64,000 nucleotides of DNA from Candidatus Melainabacteria bacterium (GCA_902168245.1 CABHPA010000085.1:14805-78804); one strand, 5' to 3'; counted from the stretch's first letter, positions 39,947 through 54,082 are shown. Notes: generated from the letters alone by a model not told the origin. Numbers and translations are program-made.

Positions 39947-40612
39947 ATGACCGACATGTTTCACAGTCTCTACAACCGAAGCACGGCCAGCATCGCACCA
40001 GCCATAGAGCAGGCCGACAAAGCGGGCGATAAAACCTTTTTAAACTGGCCCGCCAGCTACCTGGACGGCTTCCAGGCGTTCGATCCCGATCATTATAGGC
40101 TGGAAGTGTGCGGCCTGGTGGACAAGCCCCAAGCCTTCAGCCTGAAAGACTTGACCGGCTTTACACGCATCCAGCAGAACCGACGGCTGGTATTCGCCGA
40201 TGGTTATACCTTCAAGGCCACCTGGGAAGGATTTGTGGTGCATGAATTACTGCATCGGGTTTCCCCCCGGCCCGAAGCCAAGTTTCTCATCCAGACCAAC
40301 CTGGCAGGGCAGGTGGAATGCATTCCCCTGAAAGATTTATATACCCAGCGCGCGCTATTCAGCCTGAGGGTGGGTGGAAAAGCCCTTCCCGCAATTTATG
40401 GCGGGCCGCTCCGGTTGCTGGTGTTCGATCGATACGCGCACAAGGGGCTGGGCCAAATTACCCGACTGGAGCTGAGCGAAGAGGAAGCCCCAGGCTATTT
40501 CACCAGCAAGGGCTACCAGCCGGAAGCGCAAATTGAGCCGGGCGACTACTACGCCACCGATCTTCAAGCAATGCAAACTATTAAGACCCCAGGCGAAGTG
40601 ACTCAATGGTAG
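39947..40612 (+). CDS. Molybdopterin-binding oxidoreductase (sulfite-oxidase-fold Moco domain only)
   Basis: About 221 aa with Oxidored_molyb-like pattern (GLVDKPQAFSLKDL..., GGPLRLLV). Confidence 0.6.
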   Translation: MTDMFHSLYNRSTASIAPAIEQADKAGDKTFLNWPASYLDGFQAFDPDHYRLEVCGLVDKPQAFSLKDLTGFTRIQQNRRLVFADGYTFKATWEGFVVHELLHRVSPRPEAKFLIQTNLAGQVECIPLKDLYTQRALFSLRVGGKALPAIYGGPLRLLVFDRYAHKGLGQITRLELSEEEAPGYFTSKGYQPEAQIEPGDYYATDLQAMQTIKTPGEVTQW

Positions 40613-40804: not shown

Positions 40805-42097
40805 ATGAAAAATAATATTTCACCGCGAAACAGGCCGCTTACACTGGTAGTGGGAGTCGTTCTGGCTTCCGGGGTTTTGCTAGGACAAACATTACCGGCC
40901 TTGGCAATTGGCCCCATGGCCGCCAAAAACCAATGGCCCACCCGCGATTTTCTGCCACCCATCGCCAGCATTAACCCCAAGCTGCAAGACATTCAAAAAG
41001 CCAAAGCAGAAACGGATAACACCGTGGAAACCATCGCCTTTACTGCCGTCAGCAGCCCGGTTTTAAAAACCACCCCCAAAGTGGAGCGCCTGGCCACCGA
41101 CCTTAGCAGCCAGATTAAAAACGAGCAGTTGGAAGGCGTTCTGGAAATCCAGAAAAAGGTAGACTCTGCGGATCTCGAAGCCCTATGGAAGGCCACCGTG
41201 GAGAAAAACCCGGTCATTCGGTTCTCGCTGGAAAAGCTGGCGACGCCTGCCGACTTGCAAAGCAAGCAATCCAGCAAGTTCCTGAACAAGACCCTCAGCC
41301 TGCTGATTCAAGGCAGCACTATGGCCGCCACCATGATTCCCGGCGCCAATGCAGGGGTTGGCGCTTACCGCAACATGGGCACCATGGCCGTAGGCAACGC
41401 CCTGCAAAACCTGACCAGCGGCAAAACGCAGATGACTCCCGGCAGCCTTTCCGCAACCGAGCAGATTCAATTGGCCGGGCTGATTGATGAACTGAAGATC
41501 AAGCTGATCCATAACTACCAGGATTATAAAAGCACCTTGCAGGCGCTGGCCGAAAGCCATGAGGGGACGCTGAAAAACAACAACCTGTATTCCAAGGCGC
41601 TTTCCTCCAAGAATGATTTGGCGGTTATGGCCGCCGGAACGGCCTACTATCAGGCGCTGATGACCGAAACCGCCCTTCGCCAGAAAGCAAAGCTGTACCG
41701 CTTGCAACTGGAGCGACTGGCCGGGACTGAAACCGTTAGCACCTTGCAACTGGCCGTCCAGGTTCCAGACAATGTGACCGCATCCAATACAGATACCATT
41801 AGCACACAAGCCAGCCTGTCGAGCGAATCGCCTATCGGGCCTGAATTACCCCCGGCAACAACAGGCAGGCCCGCCAGCGATACCGCCAAAACGGCATCCC
41901 CCATTGATGGCTTGCCGGAGGCGCTGGAAATTGGCCCCCATTTGAGCCAGGAGAACATGGAACCTGTTGGCCCTCCCATGCCCAAAAGCATAGCCAAACA
42001 AATGCAGCAAGCCGCCACAAAGGCAAAAGCGGCATCAACCCGCAATGTGCCTGCCCCTATTCCGGACAAGATTCTGGGACATAAGGAGAACCCATAA
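40805..42097 (+). CDS. Secreted hypothetical protein (paralog A)
   Basis: Signal peptide; shares motifs with the next gene (LEALWKATVEKNPVIRFSLEKL vs IGMLWEAAVERSGTIRYAIEKL; IHNYQDYKSTLQALAES vs ITLYYNYRHAKERLTLAQEA). Confidence 0.5.
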   Translation: MKNNISPRNRPLTLVVGVVLASGVLLGQTLPALAIGPMAAKNQWPTRDFLPPIASINPKLQDIQKAKAETDNTVETIAFTAVSSPVLKTTPKVERLATDLSSQIKNEQLEGVLEIQKKVDSADLEALWKATVEKNPVIRFSLEKLATPADLQSKQSSKFLNKTLSLLIQGSTMAATMIPGANAGVGAYRNMGTMAVGNALQNLTSGKTQMTPGSLSATEQIQLAGLIDELKIKLIHNYQDYKSTLQALAESHEGTLKNNNLYSKALSSKNDLAVMAAGTAYYQALMTETALRQKAKLYRLQLERLAGTETVSTLQLAVQVPDNVTASNTDTISTQASLSSESPIGPELPPATTGRPASDTAKTASPIDGLPEALEIGPHLSQENMEPVGPPMPKSIAKQMQQAATKAKAASTRNVPAPIPDKILGHKENP

Positions 42098-42099
42098 GC

Positions 42100-43065
42100 A
42101 TGTTGACCCGTCTGGCCCAGTTTCGCACCGCAACCCAGCCCACCTACCGATTGCTTGCCATGCTGGCGCTGGCAGGAAGCTTATGCGGCATTCAGCCCAT
42201 TAACGCCCATGCCGCAGCCAAAACAGGCAATACAAAAGCGTCCGCCCAAACCCAGCCCGCCAAATTAAACGCGTCCGCTACCAAGACGGCAATCCCGGTT
42301 TTGGATGAAGCCAGCCTGAAAGCGATTGAGGAAGCCTCTCGCAAGCTGGACCCCGAAACCCGAAACACCATGAACCGCCTGTCGGAAGCCCTTCACCAGG
42401 AAGACAAGGCCATATACAACGAACTGCGGGACGATGAGGAGTTATCGGTCACGGATATCGGGATGCTCTGGGAAGCTGCGGTCGAGCGCAGCGGCACCAT
42501 CCGCTACGCCATAGAAAAACTCTCTCGCAAGGATGCCACCGGAAAGCCCGTGGACAACGACAGTTTTTCCAAACGGGTCGTGCAAAACCTGGTGCATTTG
42601 GGCGGTGTGGCTGGCACCATGTGGACGGGTACGCCCGCCGGGCTGATTGGCTCCAACATGGTACAGAACATTATGAGCGGCAACCCGCAGGAATCCGCCC
42701 TAAGTCAGGTCACGGACGCCGATATGGTTATTCTGGCCAAAGAAGTGGAAGCGCTGCAATCGCAGCTCATCACGCTGTATTACAACTACCGTCACGCCAA
42801 AGAGCGGCTTACCCTGGCCCAGGAAGCCAGTTCCACTATCTCCAAGTACTATGACCATACCAGCCATATCGAAAACTCGACCGCCGAGGCGCTCCAACCA
42901 TTGATTCAATCTATTTACGAAAACAGCAAGCAAGATGAGCAGACAGCCCATCAAGCCTATAACAGCAGTAAATCGGCCCTAACCCTGGTGGTTGGCCCAG
43001 ATGCCGTAGCGGCCCTGGAGCAAGGCAATAAAACCGGCAGCAGTGCAAGCATTTCGGGAAGTTAG
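42100..43065 (+). CDS. Secreted hypothetical protein (paralog B)
   Basis: Signal peptide; paralogous to the 40805-42097 product; 2-nt intergenic gap. Confidence 0.5.
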   Translation: MLTRLAQFRTATQPTYRLLAMLALAGSLCGIQPINAHAAAKTGNTKASAQTQPAKLNASATKTAIPVLDEASLKAIEEASRKLDPETRNTMNRLSEALHQEDKAIYNELRDDEELSVTDIGMLWEAAVERSGTIRYAIEKLSRKDATGKPVDNDSFSKRVVQNLVHLGGVAGTMWTGTPAGLIGSNMVQNIMSGNPQESALSQVTDADMVILAKEVEALQSQLITLYYNYRHAKERLTLAQEASSTISKYYDHTSHIENSTAEALQPLIQSIYENSKQDEQTAHQAYNSSKSALTLVVGPDAVAALEQGNKTGSSASISGS

Positions 43066-43120
43066 CTTTACAGACAAGCGGCATGAACTGACCCTGCCGC
43101 TCAAAACACTTTAAACAAAA

Positions 43121-43154
43121 AGAGACACCGACGAAATCAGTGTCTCTTTTTTTA
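43121..43154. terminator. Bidirectional rho-independent terminator
   Basis: agagacac-N11-gtgtctct hairpin flanked by an A-run upstream and a T-run downstream. Sits between convergent genes (42100-43065 + and rpsP -). Confidence 0.7.
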
Positions 43155-43173
43155 AGATTGGATGGTTGGGCTT

Positions 43174-43488
43174 TTAAGCCTGGGCTGCTTTCGCTTTCTC
43201 AGCAGCTTTTCTGGAAAGGCGTTCTTTTTTCACCACTTCCAACACAATCAACTCGCCATTTTCATCGGCTTTGTTGATCAGGCGCATAGCGGTTTCGCTA
43301 GGCTGGGCACCTTTGCGGATCCATTCCAGAGCAGCTTTTTTGTCCAGCTTCAGTTGCTTGGACATGGGATTGTAGTATCCCAATTCCATCAAGGGAGCCC
43401 CATCGCGACGGTTACGGATATCCGTTACGACGATCCGGTAGAACGGGCTGTGCTTGCGACCCAGGCGCTTTAAGCGAATCTTAACCAT
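43174..43488 (-). CDS. rpsP: 30S ribosomal protein S16
   Basis: MVKIRLKRLGRKHSPFYRIVV N-terminus; Lys/Ala-rich C-terminal extension. Confidence 0.9.
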   Translation of the reverse strand: MVKIRLKRLGRKHSPFYRIVVTDIRNRRDGAPLMELGYYNPMSKQLKLDKKAALEWIRKGAQPSETAMRLINKADENGELIVLEVVKKERLSRKAAEKAKAAQA

Positions 43489-43557
43489 AAAAAGGGGAAT
43501 CTCCTTGATTTTTCAGATGGACACACTTGTAAGGTACTTTTGTAGCACAAACAATTT

Positions 43558-44040
43558 TTATTTCAAAGCAGCTTTTTTCTGGTTCCTCAGCGAATTCAGG
43601 AACACCAAGTTCCCAATTGCCACGTAAGTGAGGAACAGAATGGAAATGGAGTTGATCATCCAGGTGTGGTGCATGCCGTCGTTCACCCAGCCTGCTTTCC
43701 AGGCATGCCCATGCTCTGCGCAAATCAACCCGTAAATAGATAGCAGAAGCATATAGAAGGCCAAAAAACGAGGGGCCAAGCAAATAATGGCAACCGCGCC
43801 CAAAAACTCGGCAATGAGCAGAAGGCCGTAGCCACTCCAAACCACGTCCGCAGAACTGAAAGGGTTGTGCAACGCGCCAGACAAGGTCAGTGGAATTGCG
43901 TTCATCACCAGAAAGAATGTAGCCGGAATCATAATCGGCCAGAATTCCTTAAAAAACCAGTTCCAACGACCTTCCGGGCATGAAATGTCGAAATCGTGAT
44001 GAGCCTCGTGGCTCTCGTGATGATTAGGCATCTGTGACAT
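43558..44040 (-). CDS. DoxX-family-like membrane protein
   Basis: 160 aa, 4 predicted TM, His-rich N-terminus; family assignment by eye. Confidence 0.4.
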   Translation of the reverse strand: MSQMPNHHESHEAHHDFDISCPEGRWNWFFKEFWPIMIPATFFLVMNAIPLTLSGALHNPFSSADVVWSGYGLLLIAEFLGAVAIICLAPRFLAFYMLLLSIYGLICAEHGHAWKAGWVNDGMHHTWMINSISILFLTYVAIGNLVFLNSLRNQKKAALK

Positions 44041-44178
44041 GGCTGCTTCTCTCTCCTAGCTCTCTGCGATGATACCAAAGCTTGCAATCAATAATAACAG
44101 AGCGAAGTAGAAGAGAAAAAACCAGACGTTTTTAATAAAAAGCGAAATATCCTTACGTTCTTCCATTTCAGTCTCTTT

Positions 44179-44595
44179 CTATGGCTTTTTGGCGGCGGCT
44201 GGGCTGGGAAGCTGTTTGCAGGCAACCACAAACTGGCTCACCATGTCGCTCAACTTGTCATATTCCAGAGCGGATAACCAGTAGGCTTCCACTCGCCGCT
44301 TGTCCACGCTGGGCTTCAGCTTGGGCATGCGCTTGCCAATCAGGCGTTCCCGGCAGAATTTATTGCCTTCACGGTAATGGCAATCACCCATTCGGCAACC
44401 AACGGCAAAGGTGCCGCTTGCACCGTTCTTAAGCGCCGTTTCCAGCATAATGGGCTGAATTTGCCCGCTACAGGGTACTTGAATAATCTTTACCGTAGGG
44501 TTATCCAGCAGGTAGCCATTGTCATCCAGCTTGCCAGCGAAGTCCACGCTCCGCTCACAGACAATGCCGATTACTTTGTTATTCTCAGTGGTCAT
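44179..44595 (-). CDS. MvhD/FlpD-like hydrogenase iron-sulfur subunit family protein
   Basis: GCRMGDCHYREGN core motif and IQVPCSGQIQP segment characteristic of PF02662. Confidence 0.55.
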   Translation of the reverse strand: MTTENNKVIGIVCERSVDFAGKLDDNGYLLDNPTVKIIQVPCSGQIQPIMLETALKNGASGTFAVGCRMGDCHYREGNKFCRERLIGKRMPKLKPSVDKRRVEAYWLSALEYDKLSDMVSQFVVACKQLPSPAAAKKP

Positions 44596-44634
44596 GATTG
44601 CTTTTTTATCCTTCTTGTGAAGTTGAAGCTTATC

Positions 44635-45801
44635 TTATGTAGTTGAACTCAATAGCGAGGCTTCGATTTCAGCCAGCACGGAACTCGTCTCGCGACGGGG
44701 GATTTCAATCGCCTTGAAGGCGCAAGCCCCTACGCACAGACCACAGTTTGCGCAACGCCCCGCATCCACCACCGCAAGACGCTTGAAGCGTGTCCCATCA
44801 TTTCCGCGATCCACCATGGTAATCGCCTCATAAGGGCAATCCTGGTAACAAAGGGAACAGCCAGTACAATTCTCGCGAGTGACTTGTGCGAATTGGCCGC
44901 GTAATGCCTTCTTTTGCAGATAAGGCAAGACCAGCAAACCCACCGGCACAGCCAGCACCAGCAACAACACTGCGACAGGCGGCACATTTTGAGCAGCCAG
45001 GTATTGAGGCCAAGCGTACAGCAAGTCGAAATAAACTTCGGAAGATATGCTGCCCAGGCCATTCAGCAGCGGCGCGGCGCCCGCGTCATGCGCACCGTAA
45101 GGCAGTACGCCCAGGCCGATCGGAAACACAGAGGAAACGATGAACAAGCCGCCAGCCATCATCACCACCAAGGGCAACGGCGGTTCGGAAACCGGACGGG
45201 TAATCCGCAGGTAATGCAGCCACAACATGAACATCATAAACAGCGGAATGCCAAGGTGCAGGAACATAAAGCGGGTCAGCGTGTAATCGGAAACGACCTT
45301 GCCCGCCATCAGCGCTTCCGCAACTGGGGCGCCCACCACGGGCAAACTCTTCAGCAGGTTAAAGGTAATATTGGCCAAGGTAACGGCTTCCTGATCCCAG
45401 ATCATCAGGTACCCGGTCAAACCGATGATAAAGGTAATCGTCAACAGGATAACGCCGGTAATCCAGGGCAGAATCCGGTACTCGCGATAACGATCCGTAA
45501 ACCAGACCCGCAACATGTGCAGAATGACGAAAATCATCATGCCGTCGCTGGCATATCGGTGTATGCCGCGGAACAAGTTCCCGAAGGGCAGTTCATAGGT
45601 AATATAGTGAACAGAGGCGTATGCGTTAGCCAGCGTTGGCTGGTAGTACGCGAACAAAAGCAGACCGGACAAGAACAGCGCCCAGATGAAGAAATTGGGT
45701 AGCGCGCCATGATAATAAAATGGATTGTATCTCTGGGAGAAAAGGGTGTTCAGGCCTTTCTCAATCCATAAGGTCGCTTTCTGTAAGGGGTCGGTATACA
45801 C
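44635..45801 (-). CDS. Di-heme cytochrome b (N-terminal domain) fused to 2x[4Fe-4S] ferredoxin domain
   Basis: His81/His95 and His182/His196 at the canonical 14-residue spacings in helices B and D (GIHRY...ILHMLRVWF; FLHLG...WLHYL). C-terminal CTGCSLCYQDCP and CANCGLCVGACA motifs. Confidence 0.65.
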   Translation of the reverse strand: MYTDPLQKATLWIEKGLNTLFSQRYNPFYYHGALPNFFIWALFLSGLLLFAYYQPTLANAYASVHYITYELPFGNLFRGIHRYASDGMMIFVILHMLRVWFTDRYREYRILPWITGVILLTITFIIGLTGYLMIWDQEAVTLANITFNLLKSLPVVGAPVAEALMAGKVVSDYTLTRFMFLHLGIPLFMMFMLWLHYLRITRPVSEPPLPLVVMMAGGLFIVSSVFPIGLGVLPYGAHDAGAAPLLNGLGSISSEVYFDLLYAWPQYLAAQNVPPVAVLLLVLAVPVGLLVLPYLQKKALRGQFAQVTRENCTGCSLCYQDCPYEAITMVDRGNDGTRFKRLAVVDAGRCANCGLCVGACAFKAIEIPRRETSSVLAEIEASLLSSTT

Positions 45802-45823
45802 GGGCGGGCTCCTTTTAGCTCGT

Positions 45824-46138
45824 CTATTTCTTTAATTCCTGGTCATTCAAGCTGGTCGAGATGTCCTCTTGCGCGCCAAGCAAAATGTAGGACACGCTAA
45901 TCGCCAGAAGAACCCCGCCGATGGCCAAACTGTATTGCTTGATGCCAGGGAGAATTTTCGCTTGAAAATCAGCCAAGATGGCCCCAGGATCAGCCGCAGG
46001 ATTGGCCAGTTTCACCAATCCTTCCGCATTCCACATCATAATGGGGCCTAACAAAGCGGCAACGCCAATAAAGAAGGCTAACCATTCTCTCCAGGTAAGG
46101 CTGGCAATACACTTGATAACATTGTTTAAAGGCTTCAT
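45824..46138 (-). CDS. Small 2-TM membrane protein (operon accessory subunit)
   Basis: 104 aa; start overlaps the stop of the next upstream gene. Confidence 0.4.
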   Translation of the reverse strand: MKPLNNVIKCIASLTWREWLAFFIGVAALLGPIMMWNAEGLVKLANPAADPGAILADFQAKILPGIKQYSLAIGGVLLAISVSYILLGAQEDISTSLNDQELKK

Positions 46139-46458
46139 TAAAAATTTTCCTTTTGTTCAAGGACAGATCTCAGCAGAAATCGCTTTTTAATCATCCATTC
46201 AAAAAGCCGGATCGGTTTTTCAACACGCCCACGGCTTTTTTCCTGGACATAACTATCGTAGACCAACACAATCAAGACCTGGGCCAACAAGAACATTACC
46301 AATCCCCAAATTAACCCATTATTTAGCGTGGGAATCGAGGCAAATGCCTTGTAAGTTTGAAACCAAAGGGACATCAGGAAAGTAGCCGCCAGAAACAACG
46401 TCCACCACATCCCGCGGTTCAATGGCTTCGTCACTGAAGAATTGGCCTGGTCCGCCAT
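46138..46458 (-). CDS. Small 2-TM membrane protein (operon accessory subunit)
   Basis: 106 aa; start overlaps the cytochrome b stop at 46458. Confidence 0.4.
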   Translation of the reverse strand: MADQANSSVTKPLNRGMWWTLFLAATFLMSLWFQTYKAFASIPTLNNGLIWGLVMFLLAQVLIVLVYDSYVQEKSRGRVEKPIRLFEWMIKKRFLLRSVLEQKENF

Positions 46459-47969
46459 TAGGCAGGCGCTCCTTCCAGTTGCAGGGCGGCTTCGCGCTCA
46501 TCACGCTTACGGCGAGCCATCCAGAAGAGGAACCCGGCCACCAGCATTTGCAGAACGGAGAATCCGACCCACAGCATGCTCCAGTACAAGTTGGTGAAGT
46601 TAATACTGACCGCAGCGCCATGGAAAGTCGCTTCAAACCAGGCAATCAGGCTGTGACCGCCGAAAGCCCCGTTCAGTTTGGTGTTCTCAACAACCAGATG
46701 CCAGAAGAACAAGTACCAAGTGCTTATAACCAGATTAAAGAGTACCCAGACGGTCATGGGCAAACGTTGCTTGTACATCGTCCAGTGCCAGAACTGCCCA
46801 ATGGTGATCATGGAAATCAGGTGGGCGAACCAGTACGGCGGATCATTTTCGATGTTGGCCATGTTGGCGATAATCAGCAAGGAGAACACGATGAACTCCA
46901 TTGCGGCCATAATGCCAATCGTGGTGAAAATCGGGCGTTTCAGCCAGTGACGCTCGGAACCAAAATCCAGAAAGGTCAGCCCAATGGTCACAAAGGGAAT
47001 GCCCAGCGTCCACAGGGTTGCCCAGTAGGGATCCATGTACTTCAGCAATTGATAGAGAGCCAAGAAGTACCAGTCGGATAGAATCGGAAGAGGCGTTACC
47101 TCAGGGTTGGAACGAGTTCCGGATTCTGCCGGGAAAATAATAGCCGTGAAAACCAGCAAGGCAATAATCAGGAACATCACCGGCTTCTTGAGGTTAATCC
47201 GTTTCATCCGGTTCTTGTAGAAGTACAGCTCAGACAGCACCAGCAGAATCAAAGACAATGCAAAGTGCAGGGAGTAGAAACGAGTCATGGTCGCTTGACC
47301 AATGGAACTGCCGCCCATCAGGATTTGCGATGTACTAAAACCCTGGTGCGTCAGGTTACCGACCAGCTTAGTGCCAGCCCCAATAATGTTAGGAATCAGC
47401 CAGGAATTTTTATAGTGCGCAAAATCCCACGGCCAAGCCCAGTTGGCAGGGGTAATATCCAGGTACGTAGGGAACGTGGCGAATACCTTGGTCGCCCAAA
47501 AGGCCCGCTGGTTCCAGATCAACAGGTAGCCGCTCAAACCGGAATACATGGCGATAACCAGCAGCAGAATCCCCAGGATAAAGGTCAATTCGCCCTTGTT
47601 TTTGTATTCGGCGGTAAACCACATCCGATAAACCCGCAATGTGGCGGCAATAATCATGGCATCCCCACTGTATTTATGGAGACCGCGCAAAACCGAGCCT
47701 AAAGGATGGTGAGACAAGAGATCAACGGAGTTGAACGCCTGGGCGGTGGTTGGCAGGTACAACGCCACCAGCACAATGCCGGTAAACAACACCAACATCC
47801 AGGCCAGGTAATACATACCACCCAGTTGATACCAGGGCGATTCAGCCTGTAAATCCGCCTTGGTTTCATCAAACAGGTCAATCTTTTGGACACGCTCCTT
47901 GACCCATTGAAACCCCTGAGCAGGCAAGGCTTTCACATCAAACGAATTCGTAGCAGTCATTCTAAGCAA
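46458..47969 (-). CDS. Cytochrome b of a bc-type complex (full-length b + subunit-IV-like domain, C-terminal extension)
   Basis: Cyt b helix B/D motifs (LRGLHKYSGDAM, TRFYSLHFAL) and a PEWY-region variant (SDWY). 8-nt overlap with the Rieske gene. Confidence 0.7.
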   Translation of the reverse strand: MLRMTATNSFDVKALPAQGFQWVKERVQKIDLFDETKADLQAESPWYQLGGMYYLAWMLVLFTGIVLVALYLPTTAQAFNSVDLLSHHPLGSVLRGLHKYSGDAMIIAATLRVYRMWFTAEYKNKGELTFILGILLLVIAMYSGLSGYLLIWNQRAFWATKVFATFPTYLDITPANWAWPWDFAHYKNSWLIPNIIGAGTKLVGNLTHQGFSTSQILMGGSSIGQATMTRFYSLHFALSLILLVLSELYFYKNRMKRINLKKPVMFLIIALLVFTAIIFPAESGTRSNPEVTPLPILSDWYFLALYQLLKYMDPYWATLWTLGIPFVTIGLTFLDFGSERHWLKRPIFTTIGIMAAMEFIVFSLLIIANMANIENDPPYWFAHLISMITIGQFWHWTMYKQRLPMTVWVLFNLVISTWYLFFWHLVVENTKLNGAFGGHSLIAWFEATFHGAAVSINFTNLYWSMLWVGFSVLQMLVAGFLFWMARRKRDEREAALQLEGAPA

Positions 47970-48612
47970 TCCCTCCCGCTTCTAACGCGGTAATGACCAA
48001 TGTAGCGTCTTTAATGTCGTAGGTAAACTGTCTTGGCGGACGGGGAGCCGGGCCGCTGACCACCTTGCCGGGAACGTTCTTGCCATTGACTTCCTGCGTT
48101 TGCAGCGGATCGTATACGCTCAAATGGCAGGGACAGGCAAACAGAGGGTTTTTGGCGGAAGGATAGTTGTAAGCAGCCGCCTCAGCAGGATCCGGCAAGA
48201 AGTTGAATACACAACCCATATGCGGGCAAATCCGGCTAACCACGATGAAATCCGGCTTGCCGTCCTTATCTTCCGGCAACCGAACCACAAAGCCTGGGAT
48301 CTTACTCGCCTGGAAGTGACGGAAAGTATATTCCTTGCTGCGTTGACTGAAAGTAAACGGCTGGAACGACCAAGGAGAGGGAAAGTCAGAGAGATTGAAG
48401 GTCACCTGCCGTTCCGCTTGAGGCATATCGGGAGGGGCCACCAAGCCAGACTTCCCTTGCCAGTCGGTCGGATTTCCGGAAACGTCCCAATCCGTAGTTT
48501 GCAACGGCCCCGAAGAGGGGCGAAGATAACGGAACAAGGGCGATACAAACAGCGCCAAAGCGCCAAGCACCGGGATGCTAACAATCAGCTTGAGAAAATC
48601 ACGTCTATTCAT
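47962..48612 (-). CDS. Rieske [2Fe-2S] iron-sulfur protein (Tat signal)
   Basis: RRDFLK twin-arginine motif; CPHMGC and CPCHLSVY boxes. Confidence 0.85.
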   Translation of the reverse strand: MNRRDFLKLIVSIPVLGALALFVSPLFRYLRPSSGPLQTTDWDVSGNPTDWQGKSGLVAPPDMPQAERQVTFNLSDFPSPWSFQPFTFSQRSKEYTFRHFQASKIPGFVVRLPEDKDGKPDFIVVSRICPHMGCVFNFLPDPAEAAAYNYPSAKNPLFACPCHLSVYDPLQTQEVNGKNVPGKVVSGPAPRPPRQFTYDIKDATLVITALEAGGIA

Positions 48613-49738
48613 TCAGCTTTTTCCCTTCCATGGAAGCGTGATTAACACCTGCTACGGGCTGAGCCAACGGCTCGGCATGCTCCACCGGCGGCTTTTCCAG
48701 GGTCAACCCGCCGGTAATGGGATCCGCAGAGGGCATATTAATAGCCTTCCCCTTATAGGGGCCATCATTTTTCATGGCGTTCGTCCAAGGGCGATTGCTG
48801 CCAACCGGCCTGCACACATTGATTTGGGCCAAACCGAGAGGCGGGGTCATCGCCTCGGGCAATTCCGGTTTCAAGTCGTTGTTATAGGACAGGGAGCGAA
48901 CGTGACGTACCAGGTTGGTAATCAGGTTCTCATTGAACATGTAGGTGATCTTGCCGGTATCCTTATCCACGTTCACATCACCATACCAGGACGGCATCGC
49001 GGACGGATAAATCCCTTCGCAGATATACTTGAACAACTGGGCGTCCGTCCGGTTGTAAACCCGGTTGTACTGACGGAAATTAGCAGGCGCTGGCATAAAG
49101 TTGTGAACCAGCGCGCCATCGTGCAATTCGTGGTTGCCAGTTTTACCCGTGTAGAGAGGGCCGTCGGCATTGCCTTTTGTGCCGTGACAAACCGCGCAGT
49201 TACCGCCGAAAATGGCGGCCACGTCGACTTTGGGATCCGGCGACTTGATATCGCCAGCCCCGGCCAAATAACGCGTGTAGAAGATAACCGCCCAACGATC
49301 GTCATGGTTGATCGCATCCCTAAAAGCTGGATGGTGAGCGGGCAAAAGCTTTTTGCGCTCAGGCGTTGGCATCACCACTTCGGGAGCGCCGCCTTCCGTC
49401 AGCATCGAATACATATCAATCGGGGTGGTAAAAGCCAAGTCTTCTTTGACTTTCTGATTTTGCCAGGATGCTTGCGTATGACATTTGACGCACTGCTGCC
49501 GGAAAATTTCCCGCCCCTTCATCAGGGAAGGCGGCTGGGAAGGAAACGCGAAGTCCATATTAGCCAGCTTCTGATCCACCACAGGCTCCGAAAAAAGCGC
49601 CTTGTTGGTGTTTTCAATTTTAGTGGGCTGCCCGGTACACCCGCTGAGCAAGACGGTCAGCGAGACAACGGCAGTCAGGGCCAAGGCTCTTGCGAATGAG
49701 ACCTTGCGGGAAGTCTGCTTTTTTAAAGACAAGTCCAT
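48605..49738 (-). CDS. Di-heme c-type cytochrome lipoprotein (bc-complex cytochrome c subunit)
   Basis: Lipobox LLSGC; two CxxCH motifs (CVKCH, CAVCH). Confidence 0.75.
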   Translation of the reverse strand: MDLSLKKQTSRKVSFARALALTAVVSLTVLLSGCTGQPTKIENTNKALFSEPVVDQKLANMDFAFPSQPPSLMKGREIFRQQCVKCHTQASWQNQKVKEDLAFTTPIDMYSMLTEGGAPEVVMPTPERKKLLPAHHPAFRDAINHDDRWAVIFYTRYLAGAGDIKSPDPKVDVAAIFGGNCAVCHGTKGNADGPLYTGKTGNHELHDGALVHNFMPAPANFRQYNRVYNRTDAQLFKYICEGIYPSAMPSWYGDVNVDKDTGKITYMFNENLITNLVRHVRSLSYNNDLKPELPEAMTPPLGLAQINVCRPVGSNRPWTNAMKNDGPYKGKAINMPSADPITGGLTLEKPPVEHAEPLAQPVAGVNHASMEGKKLNE

Positions 49739-49759
49739 GTATGTATAGCCTTTTTGCTT

Positions 49760-49933
49760 TTAGTATCCGAAAAACTGAATCCAGGAAATAGAGGCCCATC
49801 CGACAATCAGGATGAAGAAGAGCCAAAGAAACCAAGGCACCTTATGCTCGCCTACCTCAAATTCGTCATAGGAGGCAGATGATTCTGCGCCACCGTGGTT
49901 TAAATCCTGTTCGATTTGACTATTTTCAGCCAT
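49760..49933 (-). CDS. Small single-TM protein (57 aa), possible oxidase accessory subunit
   Basis: Below the ORF-track cutoff, translated by hand: MAENSQIEQDLNHGGAESSASYDEFEVGEHKVPWFLWLFFILIVGWASISWIQFFGY. Lies between the oxidase and bc genes. Confidence 0.35.
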   Translation of the reverse strand: MAENSQIEQDLNHGGAESSASYDEFEVGEHKVPWFLWLFFILIVGWASISWIQFFGY

Positions 49934-49953
49934 GGGTCAGGGCTCCGTTCTGA

Positions 49954-50124
49954 TTAATCTTCATCATGCAGCATGCGAAATTTGGATTCTTCCAAGCCTT
50001 CCAGCTTCCCGTTTTTAGAGGCCCACATCATAGCGGCGAAAGCCAACAGGAAAAATAGGATGCAGATGGCGAAAGCCGCAATGTAGCCAGGGCCGATACC
50101 GCCGGAAAGACAAGAGGGGCACAT
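49954..50124 (-). CDS. CcoS/FixS-like cbb3 oxidase maturation small protein (56 aa)
   Basis: Translated by hand: MCPSCLSGGIGPGYIAAFAICILFFLLAFAAMMWASKNGKLEGLEESKFRMLHDED. TM followed by W..K.GQ/K..DLEG pattern like CcoS. ATG overlaps the ccoO stop. Confidence 0.45.
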   Translation of the reverse strand: MCPSCLSGGIGPGYIAAFAICILFFLLAFAAMMWASKNGKLEGLEESKFRMLHDED

Positions 50125-51179
50125 TAGTGTCTTCCTCCCCCAGGTACCAGTTCGGGGTTTTCAGCATGCAGTTCGGACAAACGCTCAATTTCGTTATAGT
50201 TCTTATCCATCAATTGAGGCTGATCCAGTTGAGAATAGTTGGTAACTTCAACCTGCCCGGTAGGTGTAGACGGATCAACCGGCAAGGTCTTGATAAAGGC
50301 CACCAGGTAAGCCAGTTGCTGCTCGCTCAGACTACGTCCCCAGCGAGGCATCCGGGTTCCGGCGACACCTTCCTTGAGCCGCCAGTAGTACAGCGCATCG
50401 GTGTATGCTCGGTAGAAAGGACGGGTCAGATTGGCGGGTTTTTTAATCATGGAAGAGCTAATCGGGCCGTTGCCGCGACCGGTTACACCGTGGCACACCG
50501 CGCAGTTTTGCATGTAAATCCCGCGACCGGAGTTGGCAATCGCAGAGTTGTTGGTATCCACGTTCTTGGAGACACGCTTCCATTCATCGCGCATTTCCTG
50601 GGGCGCTTCCAGCCAGGTCAGACGATCATGGGCGGGAGCGGCGCTATGGCCACCAGCGACCTCTTTATGCTCAGGCTTACCGTCCAGGCCACGACGGCGG
50701 GCTTCCAATTCTCGCTCGCGTCCCAGGGTTTGCAGGTAAGCGACGAGATCTTTCATGTCCCTTTCGGACAAATAGCTGAAAGAAGGCATTAAAGAGCCGG
50801 GTTTCACGGCGCGAGGCTGCATATGGTGCGCCACATGCCAAGCGTCAGGATATTTGCCGCCCACGTTGGAAAGATCCGGGCCGGTACGCTCGGTACCCAG
50901 CAAGTGCGGGGTTTGGTTCACATAATCGCCCGCCAGAACCATCTCGCCCATTTCCCGATCCTGGTAGCGGACGAACTGGGTATGGCAATAGACGCATCCT
51001 TCACGCTTGTACACTTCACGGCCATGCGCTTCGCTGAGGGTATAGACATAAGCGCCCTGCTTGGTCGCTTCCGGCTGGAAGGTGGTTGCAGGTAAGATGG
51101 CGGTTACGAAGATGATTGTGAGGAAGATGAGGGCCACAAAGACAGCGGCAATCAGATAGTTGAGAATTCTATGTTGCAT
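50124..51179 (-). CDS. ccoO: cbb3-type cytochrome c oxidase subunit CcoO fused to an additional mono-heme cytochrome c domain
   Basis: N-terminal TM + GREVYKREGCVYCHTQFVR...TGPDLSNVGGKYPDAWHVAH matches the CcoO signature; second CxxCH (NCAVCHG) in the C-terminal half. Confidence 0.7.
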   Translation of the reverse strand: MQHRILNYLIAAVFVALIFLTIIFVTAILPATTFQPEATKQGAYVYTLSEAHGREVYKREGCVYCHTQFVRYQDREMGEMVLAGDYVNQTPHLLGTERTGPDLSNVGGKYPDAWHVAHHMQPRAVKPGSLMPSFSYLSERDMKDLVAYLQTLGRERELEARRRGLDGKPEHKEVAGGHSAAPAHDRLTWLEAPQEMRDEWKRVSKNVDTNNSAIANSGRGIYMQNCAVCHGVTGRGNGPISSSMIKKPANLTRPFYRAYTDALYYWRLKEGVAGTRMPRWGRSLSEQQLAYLVAFIKTLPVDPSTPTGQVEVTNYSQLDQPQLMDKNYNEIERLSELHAENPELVPGGGRH

Positions 51180-51215
51180 AGTGTCGTCTTTCCTTAATAG
51201 TCCTTGTGCGCACCC

Positions 51216-52622
51216 TTATACATAGGCGATCCCGGTGGGGGATTCCGGCAGAGGCTCCGCCGACTTGGAGAATACAGTCTTATAAATGTTCAACATGTAG
51301 AGGATCTGGCCCGCAATCAACATGATGCCGGAGATAAAACGAACCAGGAAGTAAGGCACCATCTCCATCACCCACTGATCGTAAGGCAGCGTGAAGTGCC
51401 AGCCAGCGGCCTGAATCAAGCCAGCAATGGTCAGGGCGATCATCATCACGATCCATCCGATGAAACTCAGCCAGAAATGCCAGATGGCCAGCGCGCGGCT
51501 ATAGATTTTACGGCCGGTGATTTTGGGAATGATGAAGTAAGAGGCGGAAAACACGATGAAAGAGAAGGTCGCAAGCAAGGCCAGGTGAGCGTGACCCACC
51601 ACCCAGTTGGAGAAGTGCAGGTACCAGTTGATACTACGGGTTGCCTGGAACGGCCCCTGCATACAAGTCAGCAGGTAGGCCAAACCAGCCGCCATGGCGA
51701 ACCGCATGGGGATATGATCCGCCATCAGGTGCCATTTGCCCTTCAGGGTCATAAAGAAGTTGGTTTGAACCGTCAGTACGGGAATCAACAAGAAAACGCT
51801 GGAGATGACCGCAATCGCTTTCAGCCACTCAGGAACTGGGGATTGCAGGATGTGGTGGGTACCCGTAGGCGCATAGAACATCCCAATCGTCCAGAAGCCA
51901 ATCATGGACAAGGTGTGGCTGTAGAGAGGATTGCCGGAGAAACGGGGCAGCAGGTAGTACAAAATACCGACCCCACCCACCGTAAACCACATACCCAGAA
52001 TGTTGTGACCATAGAACCAGCCCGCAATGGCGTCATTCAGGCCAGTGAACTGTACAAACGCCCGGTTACCGACCACGTACACAATCGGGAACCAGAACAA
52101 AGCGCCCATAAAGTACCAGAGACTGACGTACCATTTTTTCTCACTGCCGGTAAAGATGGTCATATAAACGTTCAAACCCACCAGCAGAAGGGCGCCCAGC
52201 ACCAACCAGTCGAAGGGGCCATTTAACTCGGCGTATTCACGGCCTTCGGTGTAGCCGTTCATAATGCTCCACACCCCCAGAATCACCGTCAGATTCCAGA
52301 GAAACAGGGTAATGTTGCCGAGCCGCTCGCTCCACATGCTTTTACGACCGGACAGCACCGGCACAATGTAGAACATGCAGGACACGTAACCCATGGACAG
52401 CCAGCCAATCAGCACCGTGTTAATGTGCGCAGGCCGCAAACGACCAAAGGCCAACTGGGGAATGCCGTGGATAATATCGGGGTTGGACATCAGCAGAGCC
52501 GCAATCAGCCCGAAAAGCATGCCAAATACTAAATAGAAGATAGCGCATAGCAAAAAGTTTCGGCTGGCGCTGTATGGCTCATCACTAAACGCGGCACGCC
52601 ATAAATTGGTAAGGGCTTGCAT
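51216..52622 (-). CDS. ccoN: cbb3-type cytochrome c oxidase subunit I (CcoN)
   Basis: 468 aa, 12+ TM, heme-copper oxidase His patterns (HINTVLIGW, WFYGHNILGMWF, VVGHAHLALL). Confidence 0.8.
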   Translation of the reverse strand: MQALTNLWRAAFSDEPYSASRNFLLCAIFYLVFGMLFGLIAALLMSNPDIIHGIPQLAFGRLRPAHINTVLIGWLSMGYVSCMFYIVPVLSGRKSMWSERLGNITLFLWNLTVILGVWSIMNGYTEGREYAELNGPFDWLVLGALLLVGLNVYMTIFTGSEKKWYVSLWYFMGALFWFPIVYVVGNRAFVQFTGLNDAIAGWFYGHNILGMWFTVGGVGILYYLLPRFSGNPLYSHTLSMIGFWTIGMFYAPTGTHHILQSPVPEWLKAIAVISSVFLLIPVLTVQTNFFMTLKGKWHLMADHIPMRFAMAAGLAYLLTCMQGPFQATRSINWYLHFSNWVVGHAHLALLATFSFIVFSASYFIIPKITGRKIYSRALAIWHFWLSFIGWIVMMIALTIAGLIQAAGWHFTLPYDQWVMEMVPYFLVRFISGIMLIAGQILYMLNIYKTVFSKSAEPLPESPTGIAYV

Positions 52623-53059
52623 ATATTTTACATATCTCCAGGGTAAGACTTACGAGGGGCTCAAAACTGATTACCGTTAATTTTCCATCCTTAGTATAAC
52701 CACGGGGAATTTTCAGGAAATATGCGTAAACACATACTCCAGATCGGCTCCTGCCCCTTTTTTTAAAGGGTATCAAAAAAATTTACAGAGCGTGATCTTG
52801 CAACATAATTTGTTTTTAATTCTTAAAGTTATTCATCCCATTCGGACTTACCCTTTCACCCTCGATATTCGGCCAAGGACGGTTTTAAGCAAGCCCGCGC
52901 CACCATCGAATCCGAATCAAATATATCCAACTTCAGTCCTCAAAACTGCATATGGATTATTCAAAACATCAGAGTGTATATCGTACTTCTATCTGTAACG
53001 TATTCCGGCCGCATTGTTTTTTGAGCCGCCGTAGCGCCTGAATAGGCTATAATGGCCCT

Positions 53060-54082
53060 ATGGCAGAAACACCTTTACTGAAAATTCAGGATCTCACGGT
53101 GGCCTTTCCCACCGAAACCGATCCCGCATACGCCATTAACCACCTTTCCCTGGAAATCCAACCAGGAGAAGTACTGGGCCTGGTAGGCGAATCCGGCTGC
53201 GGAAAAAGCATGACCAGCCTGGCTACGCTGCGATTGATTCCATCACCCGGCTATATTGCCAATGGCTCGGTTCATTTCAAAGGTCAAAACCTGTTATCCC
53301 TTAATGCAGAGGGAATTCGCAAGGTGCGAGGCGCGCAAATCGCCCTGATTCCACAAGACCCGTTGACTTCGCTGAACCCGGTCTACACTATCGGCGATCA
53401 GATTATGGAAGTGCTCCTGCTGCACCAGCATCTTTCCAAAAATGACGCCCGCAAACGGGCCATTGAACTGCTGGATCTGGTGCGCATCCCCAACAGCCGG
53501 GATCGCATTAACGACTACCCCCACCAGTTTTCCGGCGGTATGCGACAGCGGGTCATGATTGCGATGGCCTTGAGCTGCACCCCCGCCCTTTTAATTGCCG
53601 ATGAACCCACCACCGCGCTGGATGTAACCGTACAGGCCCAGATTTTACAATTGCTACGCGACATTCGCCGGGAACACCAGACCGCCATTATGCTGATTAC
53701 ACACGATTTGGGCGTAGTAGCGGAAATGTGCGACGAAGTGGCCGTCATGTACGCTGGCCGCGTGGTGGAAAAAGCCAGCGTGATGGATCTGTTCAAATCG
53801 CCCAAGCACCCTTACACGTGGGGATTGCTGGAATCCCTGCCCACCATGAACCATAGCCGCTTGAAACCCATTGAAGGCCAGCCACCTTCCATTACGGAAA
53901 TCCCGATGGGCTGCTCTTTTGAACCCCGGTGCAGCAAGCGGATGGACGTATGCAAAACCGTTTTTCCCTTAGCGGCGGAGGAAGGGACTAACCACCAGGT
54001 TTGCTGCTACCTGTATCCGGGCAGTTACCATCCGGATCAGCCGAAAGACCAAATGCCTCCGGCAACAACGCTTTTATCTTGA
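53060..54082 (+). CDS. Oligopeptide/dipeptide-type ABC transporter ATP-binding protein (OppD/DppD-like), orphan
   Basis: Walker A GESGCGKS, signature FSGGMRQRVMIAMAL, C-terminal oligopeptide ABC extension with Cys cluster. Confidence 0.75.
   Translation: MAETPLLKIQDLTVAFPTETDPAYAINHLSLEIQPGEVLGLVGESGCGKSMTSLATLRLIPSPGYIANGSVHFKGQNLLSLNAEGIRKVRGAQIALIPQDPLTSLNPVYTIGDQIMEVLLLHQHLSKNDARKRAIELLDLVRIPNSRDRINDYPHQFSGGMRQRVMIAMALSCTPALLIADEPTTALDVTVQAQILQLLRDIRREHQTAIMLITHDLGVVAEMCDEVAVMYAGRVVEKASVMDLFKSPKHPYTWGLLESLPTMNHSRLKPIEGQPPSITEIPMGCSFEPRCSKRMDVCKTVFPLAAEEGTNHQVCCYLYPGSYHPDQPKDQMPPATTLLS

Follow-up and report, generated by a model that had tools for sequence, protein, structure and literature searches.

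To our knowledge, textbook Rieske/cytochrome b complexes hold two identical cytochrome b chains with two haems each, and in bc1 dimers the two bL haems lie near enough to each other for electron exchange. The window analysed here, a stretch of 64,000 nucleotides from a Candidatus Melainabacteria bacterium (GCA_902168245.1, CABHPA010000085.1:14805-78804), contains an operon for a Rieske protein, a cbb3-type haem-copper oxidase and a main cytochrome b that retains the ligands of haem bL only. Next to them is encoded a second cytochrome b of 388 amino acids (aa), the membrane part of which is fused to a ferredoxin domain with motifs for two [4Fe-4S] clusters (hereafter the fusion) and the gene of which is followed by that for a [2Fe-2S] protein of the MvhD/FlpD type (hereafter MvhD). 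Judged by homology and gene order, the fusion and MvhD are the conserved terminal subunit pair of this operon and belong to a large family of oxidase-associated proteins, in most of whose best-matching members from other phyla the two are joined in one chain (the fused form, as opposed to the split form of the window).

Two-haem membrane proteins that connect the quinone pool or the outer face of the membrane to cytoplasmic Fe-S clusters are known from NarGHI (NarI/NarH), HdrDE, DsrMK and QmoC, and the Qmo complex combines cytochrome b, ferredoxin-like and MvhD-like parts. The cytochrome b fold of the NarI/HdrE type is, however, unrelated to that of the bc/b6f type. In the Mvh-Hdr structure a docked dehydrogenase delivers electrons that travel inward through a ferredoxin-MvhD cassette. 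CcoG/FixG, the cupric reductase of cbb3 oxidase assembly, sits in the membrane and carries two [4Fe-4S] clusters on the cytoplasmic side; as far as we know, it has neither haems nor an MvhD part.

The fusion shares features with each of these systems and coincides with none of them. Unlike NarI, HdrE and QmoC, it has a membrane part that matches Pfam family PF00033 and is structurally bc1/b6-like, and its partner is a haem-copper oxidase cluster instead of the nitrate, sulfite or heterodisulfide reductase of NarGHI, DsrMK and HdrDE. The C-terminal ferredoxin domain of HdrA together with MvhD, as found in Mvh-Hdr and in Methanosarcina HdrA2, represents the same cassette of one [2Fe-2S] and two [4Fe-4S] clusters in the same order, whereas the cassette of the window lacks the flavin domain, HdrB/C and the hydrogenase and is joined to a membrane cytochrome b. 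With cytochrome b6/b of the b6f and bc1 complexes the fusion has in common the fold of helices A-F, the bc1-type spacing of histidines, the WDQ motif of the cd region and the acidic residue at the PEWY position, as well as, in Vampirovibrionia, being encoded together with a Rieske protein. It differs from them in having no helices G and H, no Cys for haem cn and an additional 2x[4Fe-4S] domain on the inner side, in accompanying, as a second cytochrome b, a main chain that lacks haem bH, and in that 78 of the 80 fused-form loci counted have no Rieske gene. The fused relatives, like CcoG, finish in a single helix and a beta-rich outer domain, but CcoG-specific families are not among the Pfam matches of the fusion.

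Part of the locus has been noticed before: Supplementary Note 6 of PMC6349859 lists ccoN and ccoO beside 'petB, petB, petC' at the same locus of Melainabacteria, and the genome paper on V. chlorellavorus reports Complexes I-IV and a cbb3 oxidase. In such Melainabacteria genome papers the second petB was taken as an ordinary cytochrome b6, and the ferredoxin fusion, MvhD and the loss of haem bH are not mentioned. No description of the fusion architecture, of its association with oxidases or of the loss of bH ligands was found in the searchable literature, which leaves subscription-only papers outside; this agrees with an initial annotation of the window, made by a model from the sequence alone, in which the fusion and its neighbours had not been recognised as a described complex.

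The fusion protein

The Pfam profile Cytochrome_B (PF00033) covers residues 21-200 of the fusion with an E-value of 9.5e-33, and four histidines, H81, H95, H182 and H196, are invariant in 17 close and 59 diverse homologues. All four align to the His ligands of b6, two being located on helix B and two on helix D, with H81 and H182 as the ligands of haem bL and H95 and H196 as those of haem bH. The complete di-haem N-terminal domain reported in the initial annotation is thus present, but the homology does not end there, as the cytochrome b part reaches beyond the N-terminal four-helix domain through helices E and F. The hidden Markov model (HMM) alignment between the fusion and yeast cytochrome b extends to profile position 294, and residues 23-301 of the fusion were aligned by BLASTP to residues 41-340 of the main cytochrome b of the same operon (27% identity, E 6e-25). 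In the AlphaFold2 model (predicted local distance difference test score, pLDDT, 83; predicted template modelling score, pTM, 0.83) helices occupy residues 34-50, 74-101, 107-132, 172-198, 209-225 and 275-300 and are followed by the Fe-S domain. A modelled fused homologue was aligned by Foldseek over about 290-305 columns with bc1 cytochrome b.

The closest solved relatives of the cytochrome b part are cyanobacterial b6 proteins (E 9e-37). Nevertheless, Cys35 of b6, which is the haem cn site, aligns with Tyr in the fusion, and helices G and H are absent, so the fusion is, on these alignments, neither a b6 in the strict sense nor a complete bc1 cytochrome b. The histidines of helix D show a one-residue gap relative to b6, which gives them bc1-like spacing. 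In the ef loop a conserved Asp (D259) occupies the position of the PEWY/PDWY motif of the quinol-oxidation (Qo) site; the motif at this position reads D-L-L-Y in the fusion of the window and D-W-F-Y in Caenarcaniphilales and the fused family, and the pattern D-x-x-[YF] was found in 51 of 54 relatives.

Going by the homology of helices A-F with cytochrome b, the N-terminus and the ferredoxin domain face the cytoplasm and helix F ends there; a cytoplasmic location of the ferredoxin domain is also predicted from its position after six membrane helices. Residues 303-364 are matched by Fer4_7 (E 1.9e-9), Fer4_21 and Fer4. The two cluster motifs are C312-x2-C315-x2-C318-x3-C322-P and C350-x2-C353-x2-C356-x3-C360-A, so that both clusters expected from the initial annotation are confirmed, with the correction that the second motif terminates in Ala and not in Pro. 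All eight Cys are conserved in close and distant homologues.

The ferredoxin domain has its closest solved relatives in the C-terminal ferredoxin domain of HdrA (7bkb_A, residues 587-667; 5odc_A, residues 576-648). Along the NCBIfam model of HdrA2, positions 571-640 correspond to this domain and positions 647-772 to the separate MvhD, i.e. the order is colinear. As anticipated, MvhD is encoded next on the same strand: it scores 78.9 bits against the FlpD/MvhD family PF02662, the cut-off being 22.3, matches the solved MvhD chain 5odc_D with an E-value of 8.8e-18 and retains the Cys-containing motifs VPCSG and GCxxGDC. The ferredoxin domain and MvhD are accordingly regarded, by homology, as one cassette. 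None of the usual partners of MvhD (hydrogenase, formate dehydrogenase or HdrA) was seen among the scanned open reading frames (ORFs) of the window, the larger of which include no hydrogenase or heterodisulfide reductase gene, or in the Pfam annotation of those neighbourhoods of relatives that were inspected.

The main cytochrome b

When the main cytochrome b is aligned to b6, Arg112 is found opposite His100 and a Tyr opposite His202, these two histidines being the inner-haem ligands. Only the bL pair, H98 and H235, is left, and the bH positions are taken by R112 and Y249/F250. The same holds for the whole set of 55 homologues, drawn from all the Vampirovibrionia-type loci: both bH ligands are lost in 55/55, position 112 is either Arg (28 sequences) or Lys (26), positions 249-251 always read Tyr-Phe-Tyr, and the one His in helix B and the one in helix D are each present in 54/55. 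The Qo motif LPILSDWYF is maintained, its D, W, Y and F in all 55 sequences and the neighbouring Leu positions in 54. With both bH ligands replaced, the main cytochrome b is predicted to be a mono-haem protein that carries bL alone, its quinol-oxidation site remaining under strong constraint. Within the operon, ligands for haem bH occur in the fusion only. Two further peculiarities of the main cytochrome b are some 40 inserted residues in the outer cd loop (residues ~165-215) and a C-terminal extension (~360-503) with several extra hydrophobic helices past the subunit IV-like part.

The split form in Vampirovibrionia

The split form was surveyed in 53 species-level genomes encoding the fusion (loci L001-L053). 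Gene content and best matches assign the window to a Vampirovibrio-like member of the class Vampirovibrionia (Melainabacteria), the non-photosynthetic sister class of cyanobacteria. The closest of the 53 loci, labelled 'Vampirovibrio sp.' (L001), shares 90% identity with the window in the fusion and 96% in CcoN. In 52 of the 53 genomes MvhD lies immediately downstream of the fusion, and the remaining locus ends at a contig edge. The entire order of CcoN, CcoO, cytochrome c, Rieske protein, cytochrome b, small proteins, fusion and MvhD is found in 51/53, extending over Vampirovibrionales, including V. chlorellavorus NCIMB 11383, and Caenarcaniphilales, at 41-45% identity; the distant unfused relatives L142 and L143 have the same gene order. 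The initial annotation had described a module directly downstream of the bc-cbb3 operon. Its position and strand are as described, but the fusion and MvhD are the terminal part of that operon and not a separate module.

SCO1, which is frequent beside the fused form (see below), was found in none of the 53 loci, and the haem O synthase family UbiA gave a single match, in L047; neither is present in the window. The HMM search for the tail domain of the fused relatives likewise found none in the window or in the 53 loci. A conserved soluble ORF of about 245 aa without a Pfam match precedes the fusion-MvhD pair in L016 (7044-7769) and L018 (2845-3597), and no counterpart of it was detected in the window or in loci L001-L053.

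Several records titled 'uncultured Gammaproteobacteria', 'Oculatellaceae' or 'Coleofasciculaceae cyanobacterium' also hold the Vampirovibrionia-type operon (L031, L038, L039, L044, L046, L047, L052, L053; L002, L003). As they group with Caenarcaniphilales/Vampirovibrionales loci, the organism names given to them look wrong.

The fused form in other phyla

A profile search of 1.84 billion representative sequences (clustered at 50% identity) returned 393 proteins at E <= 1e-30, and nearly all of the best 150 listed representatives span almost the full profile. In at least 114 of these 150, MvhD is part of the same chain as the fusion. The link between the fusion and MvhD seen in the initial annotation is thus very strong in both the split and the fused form. 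In 93 of the 150 there also follow one more helix and a beta-rich domain, about 180 aa long, with the motif Y-x-P-G-G-x-x-x-D-G. Across 68 fused sequences no variation is seen at the four His, the eight ferredoxin Cys or the four MvhD Cys, and a model of the fused protein P0133 was obtained with a pLDDT of 85 and a pTM of 0.83. The proteins come from Nitrospirota, Nitrospinota, Methylomirabilota, Thermodesulfobacteriota/'Deltaproteobacteria' and metagenome-assembled genomes of Spirochaetota, where they are annotated as 'hydrogenase iron-sulfur subunit' or 'cytochrome b N-terminal domain-containing protein'. The tail domain gave no match to FixG_C at E <= 10 and has no invariant set of Cys, His or Met for copper.

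All seven fused-form neighbourhoods that were inspected individually contain a haem-copper oxidase. Out of at least 561 confirmed metagenome loci 80 were counted, 70 of which encode SCO1, 62 subunit I, 43 a CuA-type subunit II and 43 a UbiA-type haem O synthase; many of these loci are short, and the counts are therefore minima. The usual order is a small protein, subunit II, subunit I, UbiA, SCO1 and the fused protein, with the SCO1 and fused genes often overlapping or abutting, in some cases by overlap of stop and start codons. In P0162 (676 aa) a SCO1/SenC domain is even fused to the N-terminus of the cytochrome b-ferredoxin protein. This association with oxidases, SCO1 and haem O synthase across the family had not been anticipated by the initial annotation.

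The subunit II beside the fused form has a complete CuA motif. The oxidases are of the A-type (HPEVY), of the B-type (HPLVY) or of a common variant with H-[PS]-S-Q-Q. The HPEVY motif holds the cross-linked Tyr of these enzymes. In the variant, which is the subunit I usually found near the fused form (L058, 5415-6926; L060, 4369-5904; L054, 5131-6804), it is replaced by H-[PS]-S-Q-Q, and a Gln in place of this Tyr has served to recognise nitric oxide reductases of the eNOR type (PMC8756737). In these clusters another COX1-like protein (464-478 aa), highly divergent and without the usual HH pair of copper ligands, recurs (L054, 6815-8242; L055, 5323-6759; L060, 14092-15486).

A gene for an NADH-binding flavoprotein of the NuoF type abuts the fused gene in L060 (10102-11403), L064, L065 and L071, and in L060 and L064 it is sandwiched between two copies of the fused gene. 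No other cytoplasmic protein was found to recur as a neighbour in the inspected loci. The fused homologue P0219 ends in a cytochrome c domain predicted to be periplasmic; a table row in PMC8756737 lists a protein, RME88945.1, with b6, Fe-S, FlpD and cytochrome c domains.

Gene layout of the locus

The genes from CcoN to rpsP are all located on the minus strand of the window (Table 1), and the intergenic gaps from cytochrome b through MvhD amount to 0-39 bases. No minus-strand terminator was found in any intergenic gap in a scan of positions 43000-53200, where the counts of promoters and terminators did not exceed those of shuffled sequence, so that co-transcription is neither proven nor excluded by it. 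The FixS/CcoS match lies above the Pfam cut-off, which puts an assembly gene within the structural operon. Between the main cytochrome b and the fusion, two small membrane ORFs stand at the same position across the class Vampirovibrionia, although sequence homologues of the 104-aa protein were found in close relatives only.

Table 1 Features of the locus in the window.
Feature	Coordinates	Strand	Matches and remarks
CcoN, catalytic subunit of cbb3-type haem-copper oxidase	51216..52622	-	PF00115, E 1.8e-82
CcoO (FixO) fused to cytochrome c domain	50124..51179	-	PF02433, E 1.2e-35; PF00034
FixS/CcoS-type cbb3 maturation protein, 56 aa	49954..50124	-	PF03597, 24.5 bits (cut-off 23.1)
Small membrane ORF, 57 aa	49760-49933	-	No match
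Dihaem cytochrome c, 377 aa	48605..49738	-	Cytochrome_CBB3, Cytochrom_C; two CxxCH motifs
Rieske [2Fe-2S] protein	47962..48612	-	PF00355, TIGR01416; CPHMGC and CPCH boxes
Main cytochrome b (b6 joined to subunit IV), 503 aa	46458..47969	-	Pfam Cytochrome_B, Cytochrom_B_C
Small membrane protein, 106 aa	46138..46458	-	Adjoins main cytochrome b gene
Small membrane protein, 104 aa	45824..46138	-	Between main cytochrome b and fusion
Cytochrome b-ferredoxin fusion, 388 aa, GTG start	44635..45801	-	Pfam Cytochrome_B, Fer4_7
Cytochrome b part of fusion, residues 1-300	44902..45801	-	Helices A-F
Ferredoxin domain of fusion, residues 303-372	44686..44895	-	Two Cx2Cx2Cx3C motifs
MvhD/FlpD-type [2Fe-2S] protein, 138 aa	44179..44595	-	PF02662, E 4.1e-22
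Orphan membrane protein, 160 aa	43558..44040	-	No Pfam/NCBIfam match
rpsP	43174-43488	-	After orphan membrane protein

The third protein, of 160 aa, had been annotated initially as DoxX-like. This assignment was not borne out: no DoxX match was obtained at E <= 10, and none of the 23 family members matched DoxX at E <= 1, so that out of the domains named for the three proteins Pfam recovered Cytochrome_B, Fer4 and FlpD but not DoxX. No other Pfam or NCBIfam match was obtained even at E <= 10, and not one of its 38 database homologues has a Pfam domain or a name. The protein has approximately four predicted hydrophobic helices and a His-rich N-terminus, HHESHEAHHD, which may bind metal; its relatives are also rich in His and Glu there, e.g. 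HENNHEQEH...HHH in L025. Its detection is limited to relatives from Vampirovibrionales, Caenarcaniphilales having yielded none, and its membership in the fusion-MvhD unit is doubtful.

Just past rpsP, on the opposite strand, there is a gene for a protein with a molybdopterin-binding oxidoreductase domain (39947-40612, +), and two adjacent secreted-looking proteins of 430 and 321 aa without a Pfam match are encoded at 40805-42097 (+) and 42100-43065 (+).

Proposed function and alternatives

On the sequence evidence the fusion and MvhD are one unit, and it is quite reasonable to suggest, at not far below an even chance, that this unit is an integral redox subunit of respiration, through which b haems are wired to Fe-S clusters on the cytoplasmic side. 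It would provide a chain of five cofactors leading from the cytoplasm to the outer membrane face, namely the [2Fe-2S] cluster of MvhD, the two [4Fe-4S] clusters, haem bH and haem bL, and in the organism of the window would be built into the Rieske/cytochrome b-cbb3 assembly instead of standing alone as an enzyme. Since the main cytochrome b lacks the bH ligands but retains haem bL and the Qo site, the fusion probably pairs with it, presumably like the two cytochrome b monomers of ordinary bc dimers, and would contribute haem bH and the inner-side chemistry to it. An electron placed by the Qo site on bL of the main chain would then move to bL and further to bH of the fusion, where the Fe-S branch would link these haems with a redox partner in the cytoplasm.

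The favoured path would run from a cytoplasmic donor through MvhD and the ferredoxin domain to haem bH and on to quinone or the oxidase branch. Such an inward supply of electrons is the more likely direction, although it is held with less assurance than the subunit function itself. It is suggested by the homologous Hdr cassette, which brings electrons in from a docked dehydrogenase, by the NADH-binding NuoF-type neighbours of some relatives, by transfer from ferredoxin-type clusters to b haems being downhill, and by the cytochrome c at the predicted periplasmic end of some relatives, which would allow an unbroken route between the cytoplasm and CuA. The pairing with the main cytochrome b, the reactivity with quinone, the identity of the partner and the direction of electrons are all points that we infer.

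A number of observations weigh against an integral respiratory subunit. In two Vampirovibrionales genomes the pair is found without bc-cbb3 genes within the roughly 8 kb (L016) and 3.8 kb (L018) fetched upstream. The Qo-like motif in the fusion of the window is degenerate, with the Asp alone retained, and the heterodimer of the fusion and the main cytochrome b is itself putative. A Rieske gene is present in 2 of the 80 fused-form loci, which means that the fused form works without a Rieske/cytochrome b partner and that the pairing would not be family-wide. No conserved gene for a cytoplasmic donor adjoins the unit, and none was found in the window. The direction of electron flow would depend on the cluster potentials, and the linkage to SCO1 and haem O synthase suits a function in assembly equally well.

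This last point leads to a serious, though on balance unlikely, rival, according to which the pair is an oxidase biogenesis factor whose wire reduces Cu(II) to Cu(I) or keeps SCO1 reduced for the metallation of haem-copper oxidases, as a functional analogue of the cupric reductase CcoG or of the TlpA route. The presence of SCO1 in 70 of the 80 fused-form loci, mostly just upstream in overlapping or abutting frames, its fusion to the N-terminus in P0162 and the placement of the gene after the UbiA-type haem O synthase and SCO1, not among the structural genes, all agree with it, as does the range of oxidases involved (A-type, B-type, Gln-variant and cbb3), every one of which contains copper. The layout of the fused form recalls that of CcoG (helices, a cytoplasmic 2x[4Fe-4S] domain, a helix and a beta-rich outer domain), and the operon of the window has an assembly gene of its own, FixS. 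However, the window lacks SCO1, the tail domain and UbiA, and the 53 Vampirovibrionia loci lack the first two and gave one UbiA match; there is no Pfam similarity to CcoG-specific domains, and the outer tail domain has no invariant Cys/His/Met set for copper. The variants fused to cytochrome c and the NuoF neighbours resemble respiration more than assembly, and the loss of bH from the main cytochrome b is left unexplained by a biogenesis factor. Quite unlikely, in our judgement, is a free-standing ferredoxin-like:quinone oxidoreductase with a Qi- or Qo-type pocket for quinone that is merely co-transcribed with bc-cbb3. It would be in line with the occurrence of the pair without bc-cbb3 neighbours in L016 and L018, with fused relatives that act without a Rieske protein, with the conserved Asp at the PEWY/PDWY position and with the preservation of helices A-F, the same helices that form the quinone pockets of bc complexes. 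Retention of the order with bc-cbb3 in 51/53 genomes from two taxonomic orders argues against it, and so does the main cytochrome b, the loss of bH from which in every case would make little sense next to an unrelated second cytochrome b.

The wire could also serve as an exit, the second Qo electron passing via bL, bH and the Fe-S chain to a cytoplasmic acceptor, so that the complex would be a bifurcating quinol:cytochrome c/cytoplasmic-acceptor oxidoreductase; bifurcation of this kind has been put forward for anammox bacteria with their unusual Rieske/cytochrome b complexes. A main cytochrome b with a Qo site and bL but no bH needs an outlet for the low-potential electron, the fusion provides bL, bH and a cytoplasmic chain, and a reversed reaction of the NuoF-type neighbours is conceivable in principle. 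An exit is improbable, though: by standard bioenergetics, electrons leaving the b haems for ferredoxin-type clusters would move uphill and, on their way inward, against the membrane potential, no gene for an acceptor enzyme lies nearby, and the Rieske protein that would have to drive bifurcation is missing from most relatives.

Significance

A whole bacterial class appears to combine a main cytochrome b without haem bH with a second chain that supplies haem bH and a cytoplasmic Fe-S wire. Under an integral respiratory subunit, one tentative and somewhat unlikely elaboration is a heterodimeric core in which chain 1 has the Qo site, the Rieske protein and bL, and chain 2 has bL, bH and the ferredoxin/MvhD wire that couples cytoplasmic low-potential carriers to the Q cycle, with the fused form being an unrecognised electron-transfer partner of haem-copper oxidases and NO-reductase-like enzymes, across a range of phyla rich in anaerobes, that leads from cytoplasmic donors to CuA without bc1. 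If the two chains do pair, this would be a new solution of the Q cycle in the closest non-photosynthetic relatives of cyanobacteria. If true, it bears on the evolution of b6f and on the disputed input of ferredoxin into it, as it would represent a built-in route from ferredoxin to a b6f-like complex. Whether donor or assembly factor, the fused form fills a gap in the account of how the oxidases associated with it are fed or built.

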